This document shows positions 4,879-41,407 of a DNA stretch of 50,215 nt, piece by piece; positions within the stretch are counted from its first letter, which is position 1, and every line of letters begins with the position of its first letter. Location: NCBI GenBank assembly GCA_023264615.1, contig JAHFLU010000001.1, positions 1 to 50,215 on the forward strand, read 5' to 3'. Position numbers and translations under genes: made by a program. The stretch is from a bacterium. Its GTDB lineage: Bacteria; Patescibacteriota; Minisyncoccia; Phycocordibacterales; VMGT01. The notes beneath the pieces were generated by a model, which made no database searches, had not been told where the DNA came from, and saw only the letters and a list, made by a program, of their open reading frames with translations.

Positions 4879-6824
4879 ACAAATCCTCCTCGTTCTGCAT
4901 ACTCCAGAGTAGCTCTGTGAAGATACCCGGGCAGTGTAAGAAAGTTCGAAAAACAGAACGGAGAAATAAGTAACGCTATCTGTGGTTCAACAACGAGGAT
5001 ATCAACTTTCCATCTCTCCTTGTGTTCTTCAATCCAGAGAGCTGCGAAACAGCGTTCCAGATCCGTGCAAGAATGTGTTGCAATCCACGCAAGAAATACA
5101 TCCCGATCGGTATCAAGATGAATACCACTGCGGAGTGCAAGCGATTCAATGCTTAAATGTACTATATCTTCTCCTCGATGAATAATCGTAATAACTTTTC
5201 GTAACCCACCTATTCTGTCATATTTCATCATGATCGGAACCGATGCGTAACGCACCAGGCTTAACACGAAGTCTGTGCTCTTTTTCATGGTGGACAGTAT
5301 GGATGGAATAAAACCCCACCCCCAAAAGTAGCTTCTGATGAAAGCCGTGAGCAGAAAAACAATGACAAGCACAGGGATAATTGTTCCTTCGCGTGCGCGC
5401 AGGAAACTTTTCGGATCAAGAACAAACTCTGCATACGTTCCTCGCAACAGCGCGATCGAACTACTCGTCCACGCTCCTATCGTGCGACGCATCTGCTCCA
5501 CAACAAGGAGATCATCTGTTTTTTCTTTTGCAGATACTACCGGCTCGGTTTGTGTGGGAACGCTTGGTCGCCGCAACTCCCCGATATAGGAAACAATGCC
5601 TTCCTGGTCGGGGTGGCGAAGTTCCACGGTATTGAGTACGAAGTTACGCTCTGTCGTGATCGTGAAAGCTGTCCCTCCTCGCCAAAACTCGAGTCGCAGG
5701 GGAATATTCACAATCTCGAAGCGACCCGGAGCGGCAGGGACGAAGCGGCAGACAAACTGCGTGCGAACATACCTTTGATCAGGCGAGAATGTGCGATTTT
5801 CAAAACACGTCGATGGATCGATGCGCAGAACACCTTCGGTCTTCGGTCGCACCGCATCTTCAATACTTTTCACAAACTCGGAAATATTTGTGAGAAGTTT
5901 GAAATAAGCGTCGCCATTTTCATTTCGGAGAACGTCAATATGTACGGTAAGCTGCAGAGCGTTTTCAAACGACATCTGCTCGCTGTAGATAGTTTCGCCC
6001 TCGACAAAACGTGTGCGGATTCCGCCGCTGCTTATACGCTCCATGGTGCTTTCTGTGCGCACCGTTGATACCAATGGCACAAAAATCGCAGACGCAGAAG
6101 AAACAAAGCGATGCTTTCCGGAAAGTATTCGTGCTGTGCGCAAGGCAAAGCTCGTCTCTTTAACCCGTAGAGCTACTTTCCAGACACCATTCTTTGAATC
6201 AACGAGAGGCGTTGTCGCGTAAAATTCTATATTTTCCTTTTGGAGCGGGAGAATAACCTCTTTGTTGAACGCATCGAAATCCACACCGGGAACAAGACGC
6301 ACTTCCAGATAGTCTCGTAAGATTTTGCGTTCATTGCCCTGCAAAAAAACAAGTTGGGCTTCCTTAAGCGATTGCGTTGTGTCTTCTTTTTGCTTCTCCA
6401 TCCACTCCTGCCAACCGAGAAGCATGTTGCACACACCGATAGGCTCCGCAAAAGTGAGAACAAGGAACGATTCCATTTCTACCTTCAGCTTTTGCGACTG
6501 ATACGTTTCATTCCTAATACGCATCATCGAAAACGAAACACCTGCCTCTTCTGCTGCCCATACGGCAGGAAGCTTGTTTGGCATTGGCATTTGTGGAAAA
6601 TCAGAAACAGAACGGATAAGTACGATCGACGTGTCAAGAGAAAGACTCCTTGCATCCGCAAGATTCATTCCCATATCAACAAAATCTTGTGTGTCAACGT
6701 ATTTCAAACCGCACGCGGCAGGTACCGCATCAAGTGCAGTAACGTATGTCGGACTCATTCCCATCAACGAAAAGAGTACGAGCAGAAAAAGTGTAGATCC
6801 CCCAATAGAACGGAAGGTATCCAT
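4866..6824 (-). CDS. Hypothetical membrane protein with BatD-like architecture (signal peptide, about 450-aa ectodomain, TM, cytoplasmic tail)
   Basis: Signal peptide MDTFRSIGGSTLFLLVLFSLMG and TM segment IIPVLVIVFLLTAFIRSYFWGWGF. It overlaps the downstream VWA gene by 13 bp, which suggests they are co-transcribed. Confidence 0.45.
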   Translation of the reverse strand: MDTFRSIGGSTLFLLVLFSLMGMSPTYVTALDAVPAACGLKYVDTQDFVDMGMNLADARSLSLDTSIVLIRSVSDFPQMPMPNKLPAVWAAEEAGVSFSMMRIRNETYQSQKLKVEMESFLVLTFAEPIGVCNMLLGWQEWMEKQKEDTTQSLKEAQLVFLQGNERKILRDYLEVRLVPGVDFDAFNKEVILPLQKENIEFYATTPLVDSKNGVWKVALRVKETSFALRTARILSGKHRFVSSASAIFVPLVSTVRTESTMERISSGGIRTRFVEGETIYSEQMSFENALQLTVHIDVLRNENGDAYFKLLTNISEFVKSIEDAVRPKTEGVLRIDPSTCFENRTFSPDQRYVRTQFVCRFVPAAPGRFEIVNIPLRLEFWRGGTAFTITTERNFVLNTVELRHPDQEGIVSYIGELRRPSVPTQTEPVVSAKEKTDDLLVVEQMRRTIGAWTSSSIALLRGTYAEFVLDPKSFLRAREGTIIPVLVIVFLLTAFIRSYFWGWGFIPSILSTMKKSTDFVLSLVRYASVPIMMKYDRIGGLRKVITIIHRGEDIVHLSIESLALRSGIHLDTDRDVFLAWIATHSCTDLERCFAALWIEEHKERWKVDILVVEPQIALLISPFCFSNFLTLPGYLHRATLEYAERGGFVCRS

Positions 6825-6998
6825 ACATACACTCCTATCTCAACGAACCTATGAATGTAAAAGGAAGCAAGAAGGGTGCGTGAGGCGCTTCCCTTCCAAT
6901 CATGTTTCTTTCTTTAGATTGCCCGCTCTATCGCAATTGTCAAGGAACGGCTTTCCTTCCCATAAACCCCTAGAAAAAAGCTCTCCTGCGGAAGTCTC

Positions 6999-7694
6999 TT
7001 ACACACACCCCGCCTCTTCTATATCATGGAGAATACGCTGTGCCGCCTCAACAGGATTGGGAGAGGCGGTAATCGGACGCCCAATGACAACATAATGCGC
7101 TCCTCTCCTAAGAGCAGCTTCGGGCGTCATCGCACGATCTGCGTTCTGGTCACTCGCAACGTGTACCCATGAAGATCGTACATTGGGCGTAATGCGTACG
7201 AAATCTCGTGATAGTGCATCTTTATCAAGGTATCGAAGGTCGTCCGGTGCGCAAACAATACCGGCAGCACGATTCTTTGATGCACTGTGAGCAAAATAAC
7301 GTACGCGATTTGCCAGATCGCTTCCAAAGATTTTCTCTACATGTATTTCGTCGAGAGACGTAAGAACCGTGACAGCAATCGTCTGAAGCGGAGCAACAAT
7401 GGCACAAGCAAGAATCATTGCTTCTCCACCAGAACTATGCACCGTAATAAAGCGCGCACCTGCATCTGCATGTATTTTTACGCGGCGGGCAGCCTGGCTT
7501 GGAATGTCGTGGATTTTAAGATCAGACATCACGAACCCGAACTCTTTCATCGCAGATATCGCCCTCACTCCATAGCGATCAATCAGGGACGAGATTTTGA
7601 ACCCACCAACCCAAGGCGAGAGTTTTTCCGCCAAAAATAGTGCCTCATCGAGCGTCACGACATCATCAAGTGCCGCAATGATGTGATTTTTCAC
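6999..7694 (-). CDS. pyrF: Orotidine 5'-phosphate decarboxylase
   Basis: IIAALDD...GFKISSLI...DLKIHDIPSQ...GARFITVHSSGG matches the OMPdecase signature blocks. GGAGG lies 5 nt upstream of GTG at 7694. The ORF track extends to 7832, but that extension is not conserved-looking. Confidence 0.75.
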   Translation of the reverse strand: MKNHIIAALDDVVTLDEALFLAEKLSPWVGGFKISSLIDRYGVRAISAMKEFGFVMSDLKIHDIPSQAARRVKIHADAGARFITVHSSGGEAMILACAIVAPLQTIAVTVLTSLDEIHVEKIFGSDLANRVRYFAHSASKNRAAGIVCAPDDLRYLDKDALSRDFVRITPNVRSSWVHVASDQNADRAMTPEAALRRGAHYVVIGRPITASPNPVEAAQRILHDIEEAGCV

Positions 7695-8853: not shown

Positions 8854-8958
8854 GTGTTCTTTATTGTATCATGAAGTTTTGAGATACGTACTATCAAGCT
8901 GTGTAAAATGCCACTTCCTGGCTAAGAACCTGTGTACGATCTCGCTAAAACAATGCCA

Positions 8959-9690
8959 TTACTTCCACGCTGCACGCAGTTCCTCGACTGCATTTTCGAC
9001 TGCATTTTTCCTTGCATCCCGTGCTTCTGTGAGAGCGTTCTTTCGTGTTTCGATCGCCCCGTGGTGGCTTGTACGTGCAGCAGTTTCTATCTGCTTCAGT
9101 TCAGCTCTAAACGATTCCCGCACATTCCGCAGCTCCGTTTTCAGTGTATTTTGTACTTCTTCTGACACATTGCCTTCTGTACACGATTTTTTTGCAGCAA
9201 CCATTGCTCCGTCAAATCCTGCCCGTCGTGTTGTTTCCGCTTTTGTAAAAGCTTCTCTGCGTATTTTAATCAGCATCCTCACACTTTCTCGAAAGGTGTC
9301 AATAATATCCACTGCTGCCGACCGGAACACTCTGCGCGACTCAATGATCGCACTTTCAAACGCCTCAACCGCAGCAAGCTTTGTATCTTTCTTGTTTGCC
9401 TTTTGCCGCAATGCAGCGATATGTGAAGAGAATTGTGTGTCGGTATCAAGACGAGCATTTGCAAATTCCTCATCTTGTTTCTGCCGGCTGATAGCCAGCT
9501 CTTCGTCCTGCTGTTTTTCGAGGGTTGCGCGTGATGCGATCGCGACATCAAAATCCGCGTGTACCGCCTCTTCGTGATTTGTAATACGCTCACAGAAAGT
9601 ACCGTCAACCGGCTCCTGTGCATATACTGTTCCCTGTGCATATACCGCAAGCGCAAGCAGGAGACCTATTTTTGAAAATCGGTGCTTCAT
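8959..9690 (-). CDS. Secreted alpha-helical, apolipoprotein-like coiled-coil protein
   Basis: Signal peptide MKHRFSKIGLLLALAVYAQG, then a low-complexity, highly charged A/E/K/R-rich helical sequence. Confidence 0.5.
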   Translation of the reverse strand: MKHRFSKIGLLLALAVYAQGTVYAQEPVDGTFCERITNHEEAVHADFDVAIASRATLEKQQDEELAISRQKQDEEFANARLDTDTQFSSHIAALRQKANKKDTKLAAVEAFESAIIESRRVFRSAAVDIIDTFRESVRMLIKIRREAFTKAETTRRAGFDGAMVAAKKSCTEGNVSEEVQNTLKTELRNVRESFRAELKQIETAARTSHHGAIETRKNALTEARDARKNAVENAVEELRAAWK

Positions 9691-12492: not shown

Positions 12493-12529
12493 TGCCCGTC
12501 AGTCAATCGACTGACGGGCACATTTTTTC
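12493..12529. terminator. Rho-independent terminator (tgcccgtcagtc aatc gactgacgggca + tttttt)
   Basis: Begins 9 nt after the TGA of the PLP gene. It lies between convergent genes. Confidence 0.7.
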
Positions 12530-13160
12530 AAGACGGTAAATCTTCGGGACCAACGCCAATCGTACGCATAATCTTTTCAAGCCGTTCATACGGACTTAGA
12601 CGTTTCTTCTTGTCATCTTTTCTCGGCATCTGTCCTTGTGTATCTGGCGGATTCACCCTCAAAAATTCTCCGGTGTAGGTATTGCGCAGTGTAAATCCCT
12701 TAGACCAGCTGATAACATCGTAGAGTTCACCGTGCCAGAAAACGCGCACCTTCTTTTCGACGGAAGCAATGACCGCTTCCAAAAGATCAATATATTCCGG
12801 CTCAAAGTCCAGATGTTTGAGAAAACGTTTGTTCACCTGCCAAATGAGCGTGGCAACAAGCGCATTTGCTTTCTCCGAAAAAAGCGAGTTCGCCTTTTTT
12901 TCGTTGCAATGCCTGCAGCTCGTTACAAGGTTGTTGAGTTGGAAGCCGCCCCCTTTGCTCGATGGTATGATGTGATCAAGAGAAAGAGTGTCGCTTTTGT
13001 TGGCACAATCCTCTTTACAATAGACACAGCGCAATTCATCGCGAAAGTATACAAGATACCGTATGATCAACTCAATTTTAGGACTCCCATGTATGCTTGC
13101 CCTCAACAACTTCACTATTTCTCTTTTTAATTCGCCGACATTTCTAAACGGCCGTGCCAT
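12528..13160 (-). CDS. HNH endonuclease domain protein
   Basis: CVYCKEDCANKSDTLSLDHIIPSSKGGGFQLNNLVTSCRHCNEKK is an HNH zinc-finger nuclease motif. GGAGA RBS 6 nt upstream of the ATG. Confidence 0.8.
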   Translation of the reverse strand: MARPFRNVGELKREIVKLLRASIHGSPKIELIIRYLVYFRDELRCVYCKEDCANKSDTLSLDHIIPSSKGGGFQLNNLVTSCRHCNEKKANSLFSEKANALVATLIWQVNKRFLKHLDFEPEYIDLLEAVIASVEKKVRVFWHGELYDVISWSKGFTLRNTYTGEFLRVNPPDTQGQMPRKDDKKKRLSPYERLEKIMRTIGVGPEDLPS

Positions 13161-13275
13161 GCAGAATCTCCATGCGACACACAGGCTCTAAGGGTTGTGG
13201 ATACAAAAAAAGCGTAAAGAACAGTCTTATTTTTCTATACAGTACAATGACATCTCCTGTCAAATATGCCGATTG

Positions 13276-13398
13276 GAGCTTGATGAATATTGCGATCTGC
13301 TTCGTTGTCTTCGTCGCTTAAACCCTCACCGTATCTAGTAGTACGCCTCGGGTTTTCGCTCCTTGACGCCTTGCATCTCATCAATATTCACCAAGCTC
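13276..13398 (+). mobile_element. 123-bp MITE-like element, copy A. TIR GAGCTTGATGAATATTG ... CAATATTCACCAAGCTC
   Basis: About 93% identical to the reverse complement of 39610-39732. It has 17-bp terminal inverted repeats. Flanks are cgattg / cgactg, a degenerate duplication. Confidence 0.75.
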
Positions 13399-13439
13399 CG
13401 ACTGTTATTCTTTCTGCAAACTTTCACGTAGACAGGCTC

Positions 13440-14258
13440 TTACTCTGCAGAAACAAATTTTTCAATACGGGAAGCAACATCGCTAATACGCGTATTTGCC
13501 TTGATGATGTAGTCAGTAATACCCAATTTCGTTGCCCGGGCAACATCTTGCGGTTGTCCAAGATTACTCAAAATAATAACCTTAACATCTTTCCACACGG
13601 GATGTTTTCGTATTGCCGCAAGAACTTCAAATCCTGATTTGCCCGGCAGCATAAGATCGAGAAGTATAAGGTCGGGAGGCTGTTTCGTAAGATAGCTTAA
13701 CGCCTGATCTCCATCCTGCGCTATCCACACACGAATCGATTGATTCTCTTCCAAAATATCTTGATACGCGTGTACAAGGAACAAATCATCTTCCACGAAC
13801 AAAACCACCTTTCTCTTTATACCTGAAATAACCTTCCGCTCCCGCATAGACGAACGAGCGGTGGTAGTCCCGTCAATCGGCTCTTTCTGTAAAACTTCTT
13901 CACCAAGCACTTTAGAAACCTTCGCAACCACTGCGTTAATAGATTCCATTCCTTTGATGATGTAGTCTACGGCTCCTTCCTGTTTCGCCCGATCGATGTC
14001 TTCTTCGCTGCCGATCGCCGAGAGAATAACGACTGGAATATTTTTCGTAGCAGCTGTTTGTTTGAGATCGTGTAAAATATCAAACCCGCTGCGCTCCGGC
14101 AGCATAAGATCGAGAAGTATGAGATCCGGTTTTTCTTCCGTCGCTTTCGCAACACTCTCCGCAGGGTGTATTGCCGTCGAAAACTCTGCATTTTTCATAT
14201 GCTGCTGCAAGATGCGTACAATAATAGCATTATCTTCAATTGCAAGAATTTTTTTCAT
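13440..14258 (-). CDS. Response regulator with two tandem receiver (REC) domains and no output domain
   Basis: The motif LILLDLMLP (phospho-acceptor Asp) occurs twice. Conserved Lys near the end of each REC. Start overlaps the HK stop (ATGA). Confidence 0.85.
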   Translation of the reverse strand: MKKILAIEDNAIIVRILQQHMKNAEFSTAIHPAESVAKATEEKPDLILLDLMLPERSGFDILHDLKQTAATKNIPVVILSAIGSEEDIDRAKQEGAVDYIIKGMESINAVVAKVSKVLGEEVLQKEPIDGTTTARSSMRERKVISGIKRKVVLFVEDDLFLVHAYQDILEENQSIRVWIAQDGDQALSYLTKQPPDLILLDLMLPGKSGFEVLAAIRKHPVWKDVKVIILSNLGQPQDVARATKLGITDYIIKANTRISDVASRIEKFVSAE

Positions 14259-38278: not shown

Positions 38279-39519
38279 TTAGTTGCGCGGTATCCATGAT
38301 GAAACATACTTCTTGAGTTCAACATCGATCGACTCGCGCGTCGGTATGAGCGGAATACGTGATTCGAACATCACTGCTCTTTGTAAGCTCCAGTCGTTGT
38401 CTTTTGGATCCGCATGTACCTGCGACACACGCAACGCATTCGGCTGTGGCCCATGGCAAAATCCCTGCGGATGAAATGTCATGTCTCCCACTCCAACACT
38501 TCCGGCCCGTGGTGCATACGTGTCAACGAGGAACATACACTCATCATAGGTATTATCGTGATAATACGGAATCGAGTGCACCCGACGGGGGCGAAAAACA
38601 GAGACTGCAACTTTCTCCTCGGCAGATGTAAATACAACAAATTGCGTCGGATCCGTATGCAACGTATCGACCACGGGAACATTGATATCCTTTTCGTTGA
38701 TGATAAAAGGATAGGGGGTTCCCGCCCAGCCGACACTTGCAAGAGGACTTCCTGCATACTCGACAAATGACCACGCCTGTAGGCGCTTCACTGCAAGTAT
38801 GTATGGATTTTTGCAGTCATACGAGACGACAGGAAAATGCTCTAGCTGTTTGTATTCCGGCACACGTACAGCGCGTATGCTGTACGGAACATCATCCATG
38901 CCGGTTTTCGAGCGTAGAAGCGGCTCTGTGCTCTCGATCCCGACAAAAATCGTCTTGTTCGTATCAGCCTGACGTTCCGGGGCACTATCTGCGTGCAGTT
39001 CATATATAAACCCCTTTGGTATATAGAGATAGTCACCCGTTCCATACCGCAAGATGCCAAGTTCGGTCACACAGATACCGTTGCCACGATACACGTACCA
39101 TATTTCGTCACCATCTATATTCTGATATCCCCGCATTGCCCCCATACGGCATATAAACGGAGTACTCGATGGATCGATCACGAATACTTGAACAGAAACA
39201 GACTTGTCCCGCGTTTCAAGCAGCTGGTGCGGAAAATACCACGGCAGTACGGAATCAATATGATACGCCCGCGGTGTTGGCGTCAGTCGTTCCGAAATAT
39301 TGCCAATCCGCAATTCTCTCGGCATATGCGGCGATACTGCGATATATGCAAGGGGATGAGAGAAAACATACGGCGGCGGATAGGGCACAGCAATTTGCTG
39401 ATGAAAACCTTTTTTGCGGATCACATAGCCAACATCCGGCCGTGATGCTCCATCAAATTTGACACGTTCCTGCCAGCCCTCGAGTACATCCCATTCATGC
39501 GGATACTCTAGAGTACTCA
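38279..39519 (-). CDS. hmgA: Homogentisate 1,2-dioxygenase-like cupin
   Basis: YHDNTYDECMFLVDTYAPRAGSVGVGDMTFHPQGFCHGPQPNAL parallels the HGO block YHRNCMSEFMGLI...GG.SLH...PHGPD. Start MSTLEY at 39519 has GAGAAAGGA upstream. The longer track ORF (to 39718) runs into the MITE and is rejected. Confidence 0.7.
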
Positions 39520-39609
39520 TTATAAATCCTTTCTCACGTGCATGTGCAAAACATTTTTCCTTGAACAAATATGTCACATGCTTGCATCTTCGTAAAGAAC
39601 CTATTTCAC

Positions 39610-39732
39610 GAGCTTGGTGAATATTGATGAGATGCGAAGCGTCGAGGAGCGAAAACCCGAGGCGTACTAGGAGATACGGTAAGGGTTTAAGCGACGAAGA
39701 CAACGACGCAGATCGCAATATTCACCAAGCTC
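39610..39732 (-). mobile_element. 123-bp MITE-like element, copy B, inverted relative to copy A, with a 7-bp target-site duplication ATTTCAC
   Basis: TIR GAGCTTGGTGAATATTG / CAATATTCACCAAGCTC. Direct repeat atttcac at 39603-39609 and 39733-39739. It sits in the divergent promoter region between hmgA-like and the ALDH gene. Confidence 0.8.
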
Positions 39733-39811
39733 ATTTCACAGAAACAATATTTTGTGTTTACATATCCCTGGAAACACAGTGTTCATCACAATTCATTGAG
39801 GAAAAAGCGGT

Positions 39812-41407
39812 ATGAACCTAACCTGGAAAACAGTAGATCCAGAAGACGGGATAGCGGAGCTACCAAAAAAGATCTGGCTGGCACAAAATCTATCAGAGGG
39901 GGAATTTTGGACACCAAACATAACGCATATGCGCACGATCCCCGATCCCTTGCGTGGCAACGACATGCTTCTGGTGCCGAACACGCCACCCGAACAATTT
40001 GGAACCTTTATCAAAGGACTCCAAAAAACACCGACCTATGGACTACATAATCCGTATTTGAATAGCACTCGTTATATCAGTCTTGGCAGAGTATCGGCGC
40101 GGGCAGCACAAGCGCTGGAGCAGGAAAAAATTGCCCATTTTTTCGCCTGTCTCATACAGCGCGTCATGCCAAAATCATACGCACAGTGCATGGGCGAAGT
40201 TACCGTCACGCGAGACTTTCTCTATAACTTTTCTGCCGACAACGTACGCTTTCATTTCGGGCGAAGCTTTTCAACAACCGGAAATCACGACGGACAAACG
40301 AGCAATGGTTACCGTTATCCACACGGTCCCGTTGTTATCATCACGCCTTTCAATTTTCCCCTTGAAATTCCAGCACTCCAGATCATGGCCGCACTTTTTA
40401 CGGGAAATAGACCTCTCGTAAAATCAGACTCGAAAGTATCCATCGTAACGGAGCAATTCATACGGCTCCTCATTAAGTGCGGGCTTCCCGCGGGCGACCT
40501 TGACCTTATCCACTGTAGCGGCGAAAACATGGGGTTATTTTTGCAACAAGCCGCAAAACACATCGCATTCTCTCAGTTCACCGGCTCGACAGAGGTCGGC
40601 GAGTATGTGATGAAAACACTCAATGGCAAAGCAAAGCTCGAGGATGCCGGCTTTAACTGGAAAATCATCGGAAAAGATATTCCGCCCGAGTCACTTCCCT
40701 ACATCGCATGGCAGTGCGATCAGGATGCGTATGCCGCATCAGGACAGAAATGTTCTGCACAATCGCTCCTCTTTGTGCATACGAAACATGCCATAAAACT
40801 TGAGCATCATCTTAGAACACTCGCACGGCGGCGGCGGCTTGATAACCTCACCGTTGGACCACTCCTTTCGATAACGAATGTGGACATACAAAAACACATC
40901 ACGGCAATTTTAGGGCTGCCATATCCGTATCTCCTCTGGGGAGGAATGTCGCTTACCAATCACTCGATTCCGCCTTGCTATGGAGCATTTCAGCCAACCG
41001 CCTTCTCTCTGCCAATTGGACTTCTCTGTATCGAACAACAGTTCGACCTCCTTACAAAAGAGATTTTTGGACCGTTTCAAGTCATTGTTGAGTATAGTGA
41101 TAATCAGGTGAATACCATGCTCGCAATACTTGAGCGTGTGAAGCGCCGTCTCACCGCTGCAGTCGTTTCAAACGACCACATGTTCCTTTCAAAAATTCTC
41201 GGGTGCACAACAAACGGTACCACCTACGCCGGCATTCGGGCACGAACAACCGGCGCTCCGCAAAACCATTGGTTCGGCCCCTGCGGCCCAACTGCTGCGG
41301 GTATCGGTACGCCCGAATCCATTATCTCAACATGGACATCACATCGCGAAGTGGTTTTTGATACCTTTGCTCCTCCGATAGACTGGGTTCTTCCCGATCC
41401 ATCGTAA
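39812..41407 (+). CDS. Aldehyde dehydrogenase superfamily, ALDH4-type 1-pyrroline-5-carboxylate dehydrogenase-like
   Basis: ITPFNFPLEIPAL (ALDH NAD-binding start), FTGSTEVG, catalytic-Cys block ASGQKCSAQSLLFVH. The C-terminal IFGPFQVIV...GAPQNHWFGPCGPTAAG resembles ALDH4 / P5CDH. Confidence 0.8.
   Translation: MNLTWKTVDPEDGIAELPKKIWLAQNLSEGEFWTPNITHMRTIPDPLRGNDMLLVPNTPPEQFGTFIKGLQKTPTYGLHNPYLNSTRYISLGRVSARAAQALEQEKIAHFFACLIQRVMPKSYAQCMGEVTVTRDFLYNFSADNVRFHFGRSFSTTGNHDGQTSNGYRYPHGPVVIITPFNFPLEIPALQIMAALFTGNRPLVKSDSKVSIVTEQFIRLLIKCGLPAGDLDLIHCSGENMGLFLQQAAKHIAFSQFTGSTEVGEYVMKTLNGKAKLEDAGFNWKIIGKDIPPESLPYIAWQCDQDAYAASGQKCSAQSLLFVHTKHAIKLEHHLRTLARRRRLDNLTVGPLLSITNVDIQKHITAILGLPYPYLLWGGMSLTNHSIPPCYGAFQPTAFSLPIGLLCIEQQFDLLTKEIFGPFQVIVEYSDNQVNTMLAILERVKRRLTAAVVSNDHMFLSKILGCTTNGTTYAGIRARTTGAPQNHWFGPCGPTAAGIGTPESIISTWTSHREVVFDTFAPPIDWVLPDPS

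Follow-up and report, generated by a model that had tools for sequence, protein, structure and literature searches.

The window, by which we mean the whole stretch of DNA analysed (50,215 nucleotides), carries two 123-bp copies of one sequence in opposite orientations, here called copies A and B. Their positions, with those of the genes on either side, are as follows.

12528-13160, minus strand: gene with an HNH domain
13270-13275: left target-site duplication of copy A, CGATTG (6 bp, differing at one position from the right one)
13276-13398, minus strand (the G-rich, better-folding strand): copy A, candidate MITE of 123 bp; covariance model 147 bits, E 1.4e-31
13276-13292, plus strand: left terminal inverted repeat (TIR) of copy A, GAGCTTGATGAATATTG, differing from the family consensus at one base
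13382-13398, minus strand: right TIR of copy A, GAGCTTGGTGAATATTG as read on the minus strand
13399-13404: right target-site duplication of copy A, CGACTG
13440-14258, minus strand: tandem-REC response regulator gene
about 39520 (start), minus strand: gene with an HgmA_C domain
39603-39609: left target-site duplication of copy B, ATTTCAC
39610-39732, plus strand (the G-rich, better-folding strand): copy B, candidate MITE of 123 bp; covariance model 141 bits, E 3.5e-30
39610-39626, plus strand: left TIR of copy B, GAGCTTGGTGAATATTG
39716-39732, minus strand: right TIR of copy B, GAGCTTGGTGAATATTG as read on the minus strand
39733-39739: right target-site duplication of copy B, ATTTCAC
39812-41407, plus strand: ALDH gene, named 1-pyrroline-5-carboxylate dehydrogenase (P5CDH) by the sources

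The first-pass annotation had described two copies about 93% identical with some 8 mismatches. Alignment of 13276-13398 with the reverse complement of 39610-39732 gives exactly this picture, with 8 mismatches in 123 bp, no indels and 93.5% identity. The two copies form the only long inverted repeat pair of the window, and when they are aligned together with 40 bp of flank, similarity collapses directly outside the TIRs. Each TIR is 17 bp long and reads GAGCTTG(G/A)TGAATATTG. The ends had been called perfect reverse complements of each other, which is true of copy B but not of copy A, whose left TIR has A instead of G at position 8, the sole TIR mismatch. The 17-mer occurs exactly four times in the window, against an expectation of 0.37 even when three mismatches are allowed, and a search with the family covariance model, filters off, detected no copies in the window beyond A and B. 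The flanking repeats are also as first described: copy B stands within a perfect 7-bp repeat, and the 6-bp flanks of copy A differ at one position.

Both copies are intergenic, as had been noted. Copy A is bordered by two minus-strand genes, with the stop of the tandem-REC regulator (13440) on one side and the HNH start (13160) on the other; copy B lies inside the divergent HgmA_C/ALDH intergenic region and splits the control region shared by the HgmA-like and P5CDH-like genes. Judged by position in the sequence, it is possible that either copy alters the expression of adjacent genes. No transposase domain was detected in any of the window genes scanned, several of whose ORFs have no Pfam match of any kind, and the earlier statement that the window lacks a transposase gene holds among these genes. 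It had further been proposed that both copies seed spurious N-terminal extensions. At copy B this is the case: a mechanically called ORF (38279-39718, minus strand) prolongs the HgmA_C gene by 66 codons past its likely ATG and into the element, the gene call on ENA contig L001 being 413 aa. At copy A it is not; the 115-aa ORF found there (13290-13637, plus strand) is free-standing, spurious and antisense to the REC gene. Contigs in public databases that come from the organism of the window start inside or next to copy A, as is usual for assemblies at genomic repeats.

Upstream of the HNH gene is a promoter-like motif, TTGACAG-N17/18-TATA(G/C)A, common to the window (about 13200-13250, minus strand) and to the contigs of two relatives, L205 (about 6950-7000) and L210 (about 6810-6860); a simple promoter scan missed this conserved site. 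The MITE insertions of the window and of L205 each stop 12 nt upstream of the TTGACA box. Within the tandem-REC gene, a 34-nt direct repeat (13643-13676 and 14096-14129, 91% identity) corresponds to the equivalent motif of both receiver domains, which suggests an internal domain duplication. The window also holds a second, unrelated MITE-like palindrome of 161 bp at 1208-1368. Its 19-bp inverted ends read AGAGCCT(A/G)TCTACGATCTC, and if the end is taken as GAGCCT its flanks are TAA and TAA. The 19-mer end motif has three matches, where 0.01 would be expected, and solo end motifs stand at 13427-13439, directly after the REC stop and between the REC gene and copy A, and at 8925-8943, before the stop of the gene at 8959-9690. 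With its GAGCCT ends and TAA flanks, this palindrome fits the IS5-family type better than the 123-bp element does.

How widely is the 123-bp element distributed? The exact TIR was sought in one genome for each of 185,579 species (596 Gb). This complete scan returned 58 loci, most of them single matches, as chance predicts for a 17-mer in 596 Gb. Inverted pairs in which the second TIR is exact or near-exact were found only in MAGs titled Parcubacteria, Paceibacterota, Paceibacteria or Saccharibacteria, with the two TIRs 68-308 bp apart. A TIR scan of viral contigs yielded 15 single matches and no pairs, which is the chance level. Elements recovered from MAGs include the following.

L050, Parcubacteria group bacterium Greene1014_15: 123 bp, 92.7% identical to copy A, flanked by ATTGATT and ATTGATT
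L068, Parcubacteria Greene1014_15: 124 bp, 83% identical to copy A
L039, Parcubacteria Greene1014_15: 68 bp, consisting of the first 35 and last 28 bp, with an internal deletion
L066, Paceibacterota: 152 bp, TIR kept, interior unrelated
L074, Paceibacteria: 155 bp, TIR kept, interior unrelated
L036, Saccharibacteria: 308 bp, TIR kept, interior unrelated
L048, Saccharibacteria: 125 bp, TIR kept, interior unrelated
L045, a MAG titled 'uncultured bacterium': interior like that of L048, right TIR degenerate, perfect 7-bp target-site duplication CTTATCG

The TIR is thus the only part common to all subfamilies, the interiors of the 125-, 152-, 155- and 308-bp forms being unrelated. A metagenome scan (at least 120 loci) contributed at least about 25 more copies, 120-125 bp long and with 74-91% identity to copy A; contigs of the OBEQ01 metagenome assembly carry many of these. 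MAGs and metagenomes taken together contain at least about 30 further TIR-bounded elements, most of them 120-125 bp long and 74-93% identical to the window copies. The first-pass annotation had allowed that only two copies might exist; instead the family is multi-copy and dispersed among unrelated contexts. Four TIR-bounded elements lie on a single 9.5-kb contig (L128), where copies 78-86% identical to copy A stand beside a variant with AAACTTCGTGAATATTG at both ends, and therefore several sublineages coexist in one genome. No reading frame is open in all copies of 120-125 bp.

Two further observations concern these copies. The Saccharibacteria-type interior (L048:1968-2092 and L045, about 1600-1742) holds ATTCCCGC-N-GCGGGAAT palindromes, presumably reminiscent of the dRS3/REP-like repeats of Neisseria and other proteobacteria. 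At three loci (L128:623-1009, L128:4272-4988 and L139:7841-9739) the TGA stop of the adjacent ORF takes its GA from the start of the element (GAGC...). By crude ORF calls, an element inserted at the extreme 3' end of a gene may in these three copies supply the stop codon.

Flanking sequence was surveyed in 31 non-redundant copies for which both flanks were available. Perfect 6-bp duplications border six of them (GTAGAA, GTATTG, ACATTT, AGAGTA, TAAAAA and AATCTT) and perfect 7-bp duplications three (ATTGATT, CATTTTA and ATTTCAC); one copy has a 5-bp flanking repeat, and two, copy A among them, a 6-bp repeat with one mismatch. On the other side, 21 of the 31 show no recognisable duplication, and lengths are mixed, 6 or 7 bp. 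Nine perfect duplications of at least 6 bp compare with a mean of 0.29 and a maximum of 3 upon permutation of the flanks, in line with the original reading of the flanking repeats as a mark of real transposition. The repeats all differ in sequence and are therefore target duplications rather than a recombinase core. Moreover, the 6-bp and 7-bp classes differ in their register relative to the TIR ends, which makes both lengths real. The usual duplication of the family is 6 bp, and the 7 bp of copy B is a minority form, of which CTTATCG at L045 is an additional case.

Comparison with relatives places both insertions against a conserved background. The P5CDH-like protein of the window shares 74% identity with its counterpart in Parcubacteria group bacterium Greene1014_15, and the REC protein of the window 72% with a protein that bears the name of Parcubacteria group bacterium Gr01-1014_48; NCBI assigns both organisms to the Patescibacteria group. 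Gene order around copies A and B is kept in relatives. In three syntenic relatives the HgmA_C/ALDH spacer measures 111, 152 and 178 bp and contains no TIR even at four mismatches; that of the window measures 291 bp, or 161 + 123 + 7. A TGTGTTTAYATA motif just to the right of the insertion point of copy B is conserved between the window and two relatives. None of the relatives compared yielded an empty site exact to the nucleotide, because at 72-79% protein identity they are too diverged in their intergenic DNA.

The spacer between the REC and HNH genes lacks the element in L207-L210, being 67 bp long in L207-L209 and free of TIR-like sequence in L210. In L205, whose REC protein is 79% identical to that of the window, this spacer does contain a 123-bp copy (6821-6943), located one base past the REC stop in the orientation opposite to copy A. 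Its flanks are different and its insertion site is not that of copy A. It is 79% identical to copy A and up to 83% identical to copies from other contigs, and it carries a T-to-A change at TIR position 13 that is mirrored on both ends. A 363-bp TIR-bounded relative lies directly after the HNH stop in L210 (7561-7923). We read the insertions in this neighbourhood as repeated independent events in one lineage. A link between the HNH gene and the element was considered and rejected: the gene is syntenic in all these relatives and is never near the element elsewhere, so that its place beside copy A is incidental. The copy of Greene1014_15 matches copy A at 92.7% identity, and copy B matches it at 93.5%, while the P5CDH proteins of the two hosts share 74% identity and their intergenic DNA is unalignable. 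Such identity between copies in different hosts reflects either recent entry into these lineages or constraint on the whole 123 bp.

A further property of the family is its fold. Over its whole length, each of the two window copies forms a single imperfect hairpin, with energies of -40 to -58 kcal/mol and z-scores of -5.4 to -10 under RNA parameters, bearing out the hairpin that folding the element as RNA had been suggested to look for; DNA parameters give z-scores of -3.2 to -7.9. An alignment of 23 copies yields a consensus hairpin of 38 pairs in which 96.2% of cells are paired. Thirteen of the 38 pairs have changed on both sides, nine of these in two central helices away from the TIRs, and no column shuffle out of 500 attains the score of the real alignment on any measure. 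Sliding the hairpin partners by 1-3 columns cuts pairing to 28-37%. The G-rich strand folds better in 22 of the 23 copies (mean -49.8 versus -40.5 kcal/mol), although the copies share ancestry and the bias does not amount to 22 independent events. By crude ORF calls, the better-folding strand runs in the sense of the neighbouring gene in 13 cases and opposite to it in 28. Neither a promoter-like nor a terminator-like site was found within the element, and Rfam gave no match anywhere in the window at gathering thresholds, the best sub-threshold score being 15.6 bits to a plant miRNA model (E 2.3). The compensatory changes mean that the hairpin is under constraint or that its arms have been homogenised. 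Its conservation could be constraint beyond the TIRs, imposed by a requirement of transposition or by a structure of RNA or single-stranded DNA; covariation does not separate RNA from DNA structure here, because the element is palindromic.

What, then, are the 123-bp repeats? Very probably they are copies of a non-coding MITE family resident in Patescibacteria/CPR genomes. They are small, have TIRs at their very ends and varied target-site duplications, possess no coding capacity and occur as dispersed copies whose presence varies between related genomes. In the mechanism we propose, a transposase encoded elsewhere would bind both TIRs and excise or copy the element. Insertion would then take place at a staggered cut, its two strands offset by 6 bp or at times 7 bp, and repair would leave the flanking direct repeats. 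The mobilising enzyme is most likely of the DDE type, since only staggered-cut transposition gives copy-specific duplications.

That the two copies belong to a larger segmental duplication, or are conserved regulatory DNA of paralogous genes and immobile, can hardly be right. Such a reading would account for the presence of just two copies in a 50-kb window, both intergenic. Yet similarity stops exactly at the TIRs, which is not the behaviour of a segmental duplication, and the flanking genes are unrelated (REC/HNH for A, HgmA_C/ALDH for B), which removes a shared promoter of paralogues, so that neither escape route named in the first-pass annotation survives. Dozens of copies in other contexts, and relatives with the same gene order that lack the copies, argue against it as well. 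A more specific proposal is that the element is a structured RNA, a small RNA or a UTR hairpin for mRNA stability or termination, whose copies are kept for their function, with mobility secondary or extinct. The strongly conserved hairpin, with its 38 pairs and 13 two-sided changes, the strand bias, the low RNA z-scores and the tight placement of copies between genes all speak in its favour. We nevertheless consider it quite unlikely, as there is no Rfam match and no terminator-like or promoter-like site inside the element, different copies have unrelated genes as neighbours, and the better-folding strand is not preferentially sense by the crude ORF calls; copy-specific duplications and subfamilies that share only the TIR point instead to transposition as the source of the copies. 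Very unlikely, too, is a single-stranded DNA hairpin moved by an HUH enzyme of the IS200/IS605 or REP/RAYT type, in which case the repeats would be palindrome-associated elements and not TIR/DDE MITEs. The whole-element hairpin is stable with DNA parameters too, stem changes are compensatory (in L205 and in the fourth L128 element, for instance, the two TIRs carry matching changes), and a search of about 1.6 Mb revealed no DDE partner. Against this, the 6-7-bp copy-specific duplications abut the exact TIR ends, and no Y1/HUH transposase is near any copy among the ORFs scanned. To our knowledge, IS200/IS605 elements and REPs have no TIRs reaching the very ends and make no target duplication, and we rejected an IS200/IS605-type palindrome-associated element or a REP/BIME on the presence of both TIRs and target-site duplications.

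A plain MITE model requires neither hairpin covariation nor strand asymmetry of the fold. It is conceivable, if rather unlikely, that the family is more than a passive MITE, namely a structured nucleic acid, maintained by selection, that spreads horizontally among deeply divergent Patescibacteria lineages. The hairpin could then be the substrate of an unrecognised transposition mechanism, or a domesticated RNA or single-stranded DNA signal. This reading retains its place because of the compensatory hairpin changes and because copies about 93% identical, no less alike than those of a single genome, occur across hosts whose orthologous proteins are about 74% identical. If it were true, a domesticated signal would sit in genomes otherwise poor in regulatory DNA.

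Returning to the MITE interpretation, which enzyme might mobilise the family? No autonomous element with this TIR was detected in about 1.6 Mb searched with up to four mismatches allowed, and searching the same sequence with a core 10-mer plus target-site duplication also gave nothing. TIR pairs 0.4-4.5 kb apart with no more than four mismatches enclose ordinary genes (a PrmC-type methyltransferase, an aminotransferase, GMP synthase). All-versus-all comparison of the DNA interior to unpaired TIR matches returned orthologous genes that contain the 17-mer by chance. From the MITE-bearing loci, 126 ORFs were scanned against PHROGs and then against Pfam and NCBIfam; those on MITE-bearing contigs include IS481-like and IS256-type transposases. 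Ten ORFs picked on blastp clusters proved to be DUF4015 glycosidases, T2SS-F proteins, kinases and EF-Tu, and were discarded as partners. The transposase genes and elements found on these contigs are listed here.

L074:3990-4930: IS481-like element with rve/rve_3 domains and TGTACA...TGTACA ends, 17 bp from the 155-bp TIR-bounded element
L197:3475-4362: IS481-like gene similar to that of L074
L155: standard IS256-family transposase gene
L139:9971-10894, minus strand: 'IS256 family transposase, variant Zn-binding type' (NCBIfam NF048019, E 2.4e-92)

The ends of the IS481-like element are TGTACATTC, and those of the IS256 variant, which makes a 9-bp duplication, are GGAGTAAAGG...TAGGTGC; both were set aside as partners, their ends being unlike the TIR GAGCTTGGTGAATATTG. 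The IS481-like and IS256 elements share contigs with the MITE (L074, L197, L139 and L155) but not its ends, and are co-residents, not demonstrable partners. The IS256 variant is itself an IS of about 1.05 kb (L139:9940-10980) with ends GGAGTAAAGGAAGTTTTTAGGTGC and GGCTAAAGGTGATTTCTAGGTGCC and the 9-bp target-site duplication CGAAATTTG. It sits inside MITE copies in L109 (about 130-254) and L159 (4599-4667), and in L139 it lies 78 bp from a MITE, with a second IS copy starting near L139:11715; this IS may prefer the MITE as a target.

Known families differ in the duplications they make. IS630 duplicates TA, IS5 groups 2-4, 8 or 9 bp, and IS256 8-9 bp; IS481-family members often make roughly 6-bp duplications and have TGT ends, and repeats of 6-7 bp are given for the ISDol1 group of ISNCY. 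Judged on these traits, a 5'-GAG end combined with a 6-7-bp duplication does not fit IS630, the IS5 groups, IS256 or IS481. The first-pass annotation had suggested comparison with IS630/Tc1 and IS5, a direction that the 6-7-bp duplications contradict. Derivation from IS630/Tc1-mariner was rejected, the duplications being varied and not TA. An IS5-family MITE (IS5, IS1031, IS427) was rejected as well: the GAGC start fits GAG/GGA-type ends, but 6-7 bp does not agree with 2-4.

The element had been called previously unannotated, and this stands within the Rfam, literature and annotated phage and plasmid records searched. The literature search turned up no paper with the TIR sequence and none on MITEs in CPR/Patescibacteria, and the annotated phage and plasmid records contain no match to the element. 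What is new is a TIR-bounded MITE family for Patescibacteria that was not found described in these sources; the kind of element is known, and the family leaves our understanding of bacterial MITEs unchanged. Its use lies elsewhere. Patescibacteria/CPR bacteria are ultra-small and have small, streamlined genomes, in which the family can serve to trace the activity of mobile DNA as well as genetic exchange among lineages. It explains why contigs break at particular points in these MAGs, and it flags a recurrent annotation error in which ORFs are prolonged through the pyrimidine-rich strand of the element. The 17-bp TIR is also a bait for the transposase, an enzyme that could become a genetic tool for organisms that are hard to manipulate.

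How does the family compare with the short mobile repeats of other bacteria? Correia elements (NEMIS) of Neisseria are non-coding, about 100-155 bp long, with 26-bp TIRs and a duplicated TA dinucleotide; they are high-copy and intergenic and form a hairpin when transcribed. We know of no active autonomous partner for them. The present family resembles them in size, possession of TIRs, lack of coding capacity, intergenic location, hairpin and want of a partner, and differs in its 17-bp TIR of unrelated sequence, its arbitrary 6-7-bp duplications and its Patescibacteria host. ERIC/IRU sequences of enterobacteria are imperfect palindromes of about 127 bp that form one long hairpin, lie between genes and vary in size by indels; copies are mostly ancient and fixed. 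The long-hairpin palindrome, the intergenic location and the size variants produced by internal insertion or deletion are shared, whereas sequence and host range are not, and the present family has lineage-specific insertions and clear target-site duplications. RUP of Streptococcus pneumoniae and Nezha of Nostoc/Anabaena are MITEs of 107-134 bp with TIRs and target-site duplications, presumed to be mobilised in trans by a resident IS, the partner being IS630-Spn1 for RUP and an ISNpu3-like IS for Nezha. The family described here is likewise a small bacterial MITE with TIRs and target-site duplications; unlike them, it is without a found partner in the approximately 1.6 Mb searched, and the IS630 TA type is excluded by its 6-7-bp duplications. 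Although its TIR sequence, duplication length and host group set it apart from each of these, the family is in overall form a bacterial MITE of the usual sort, comparable to Correia, ERIC, RUP or Nezha.
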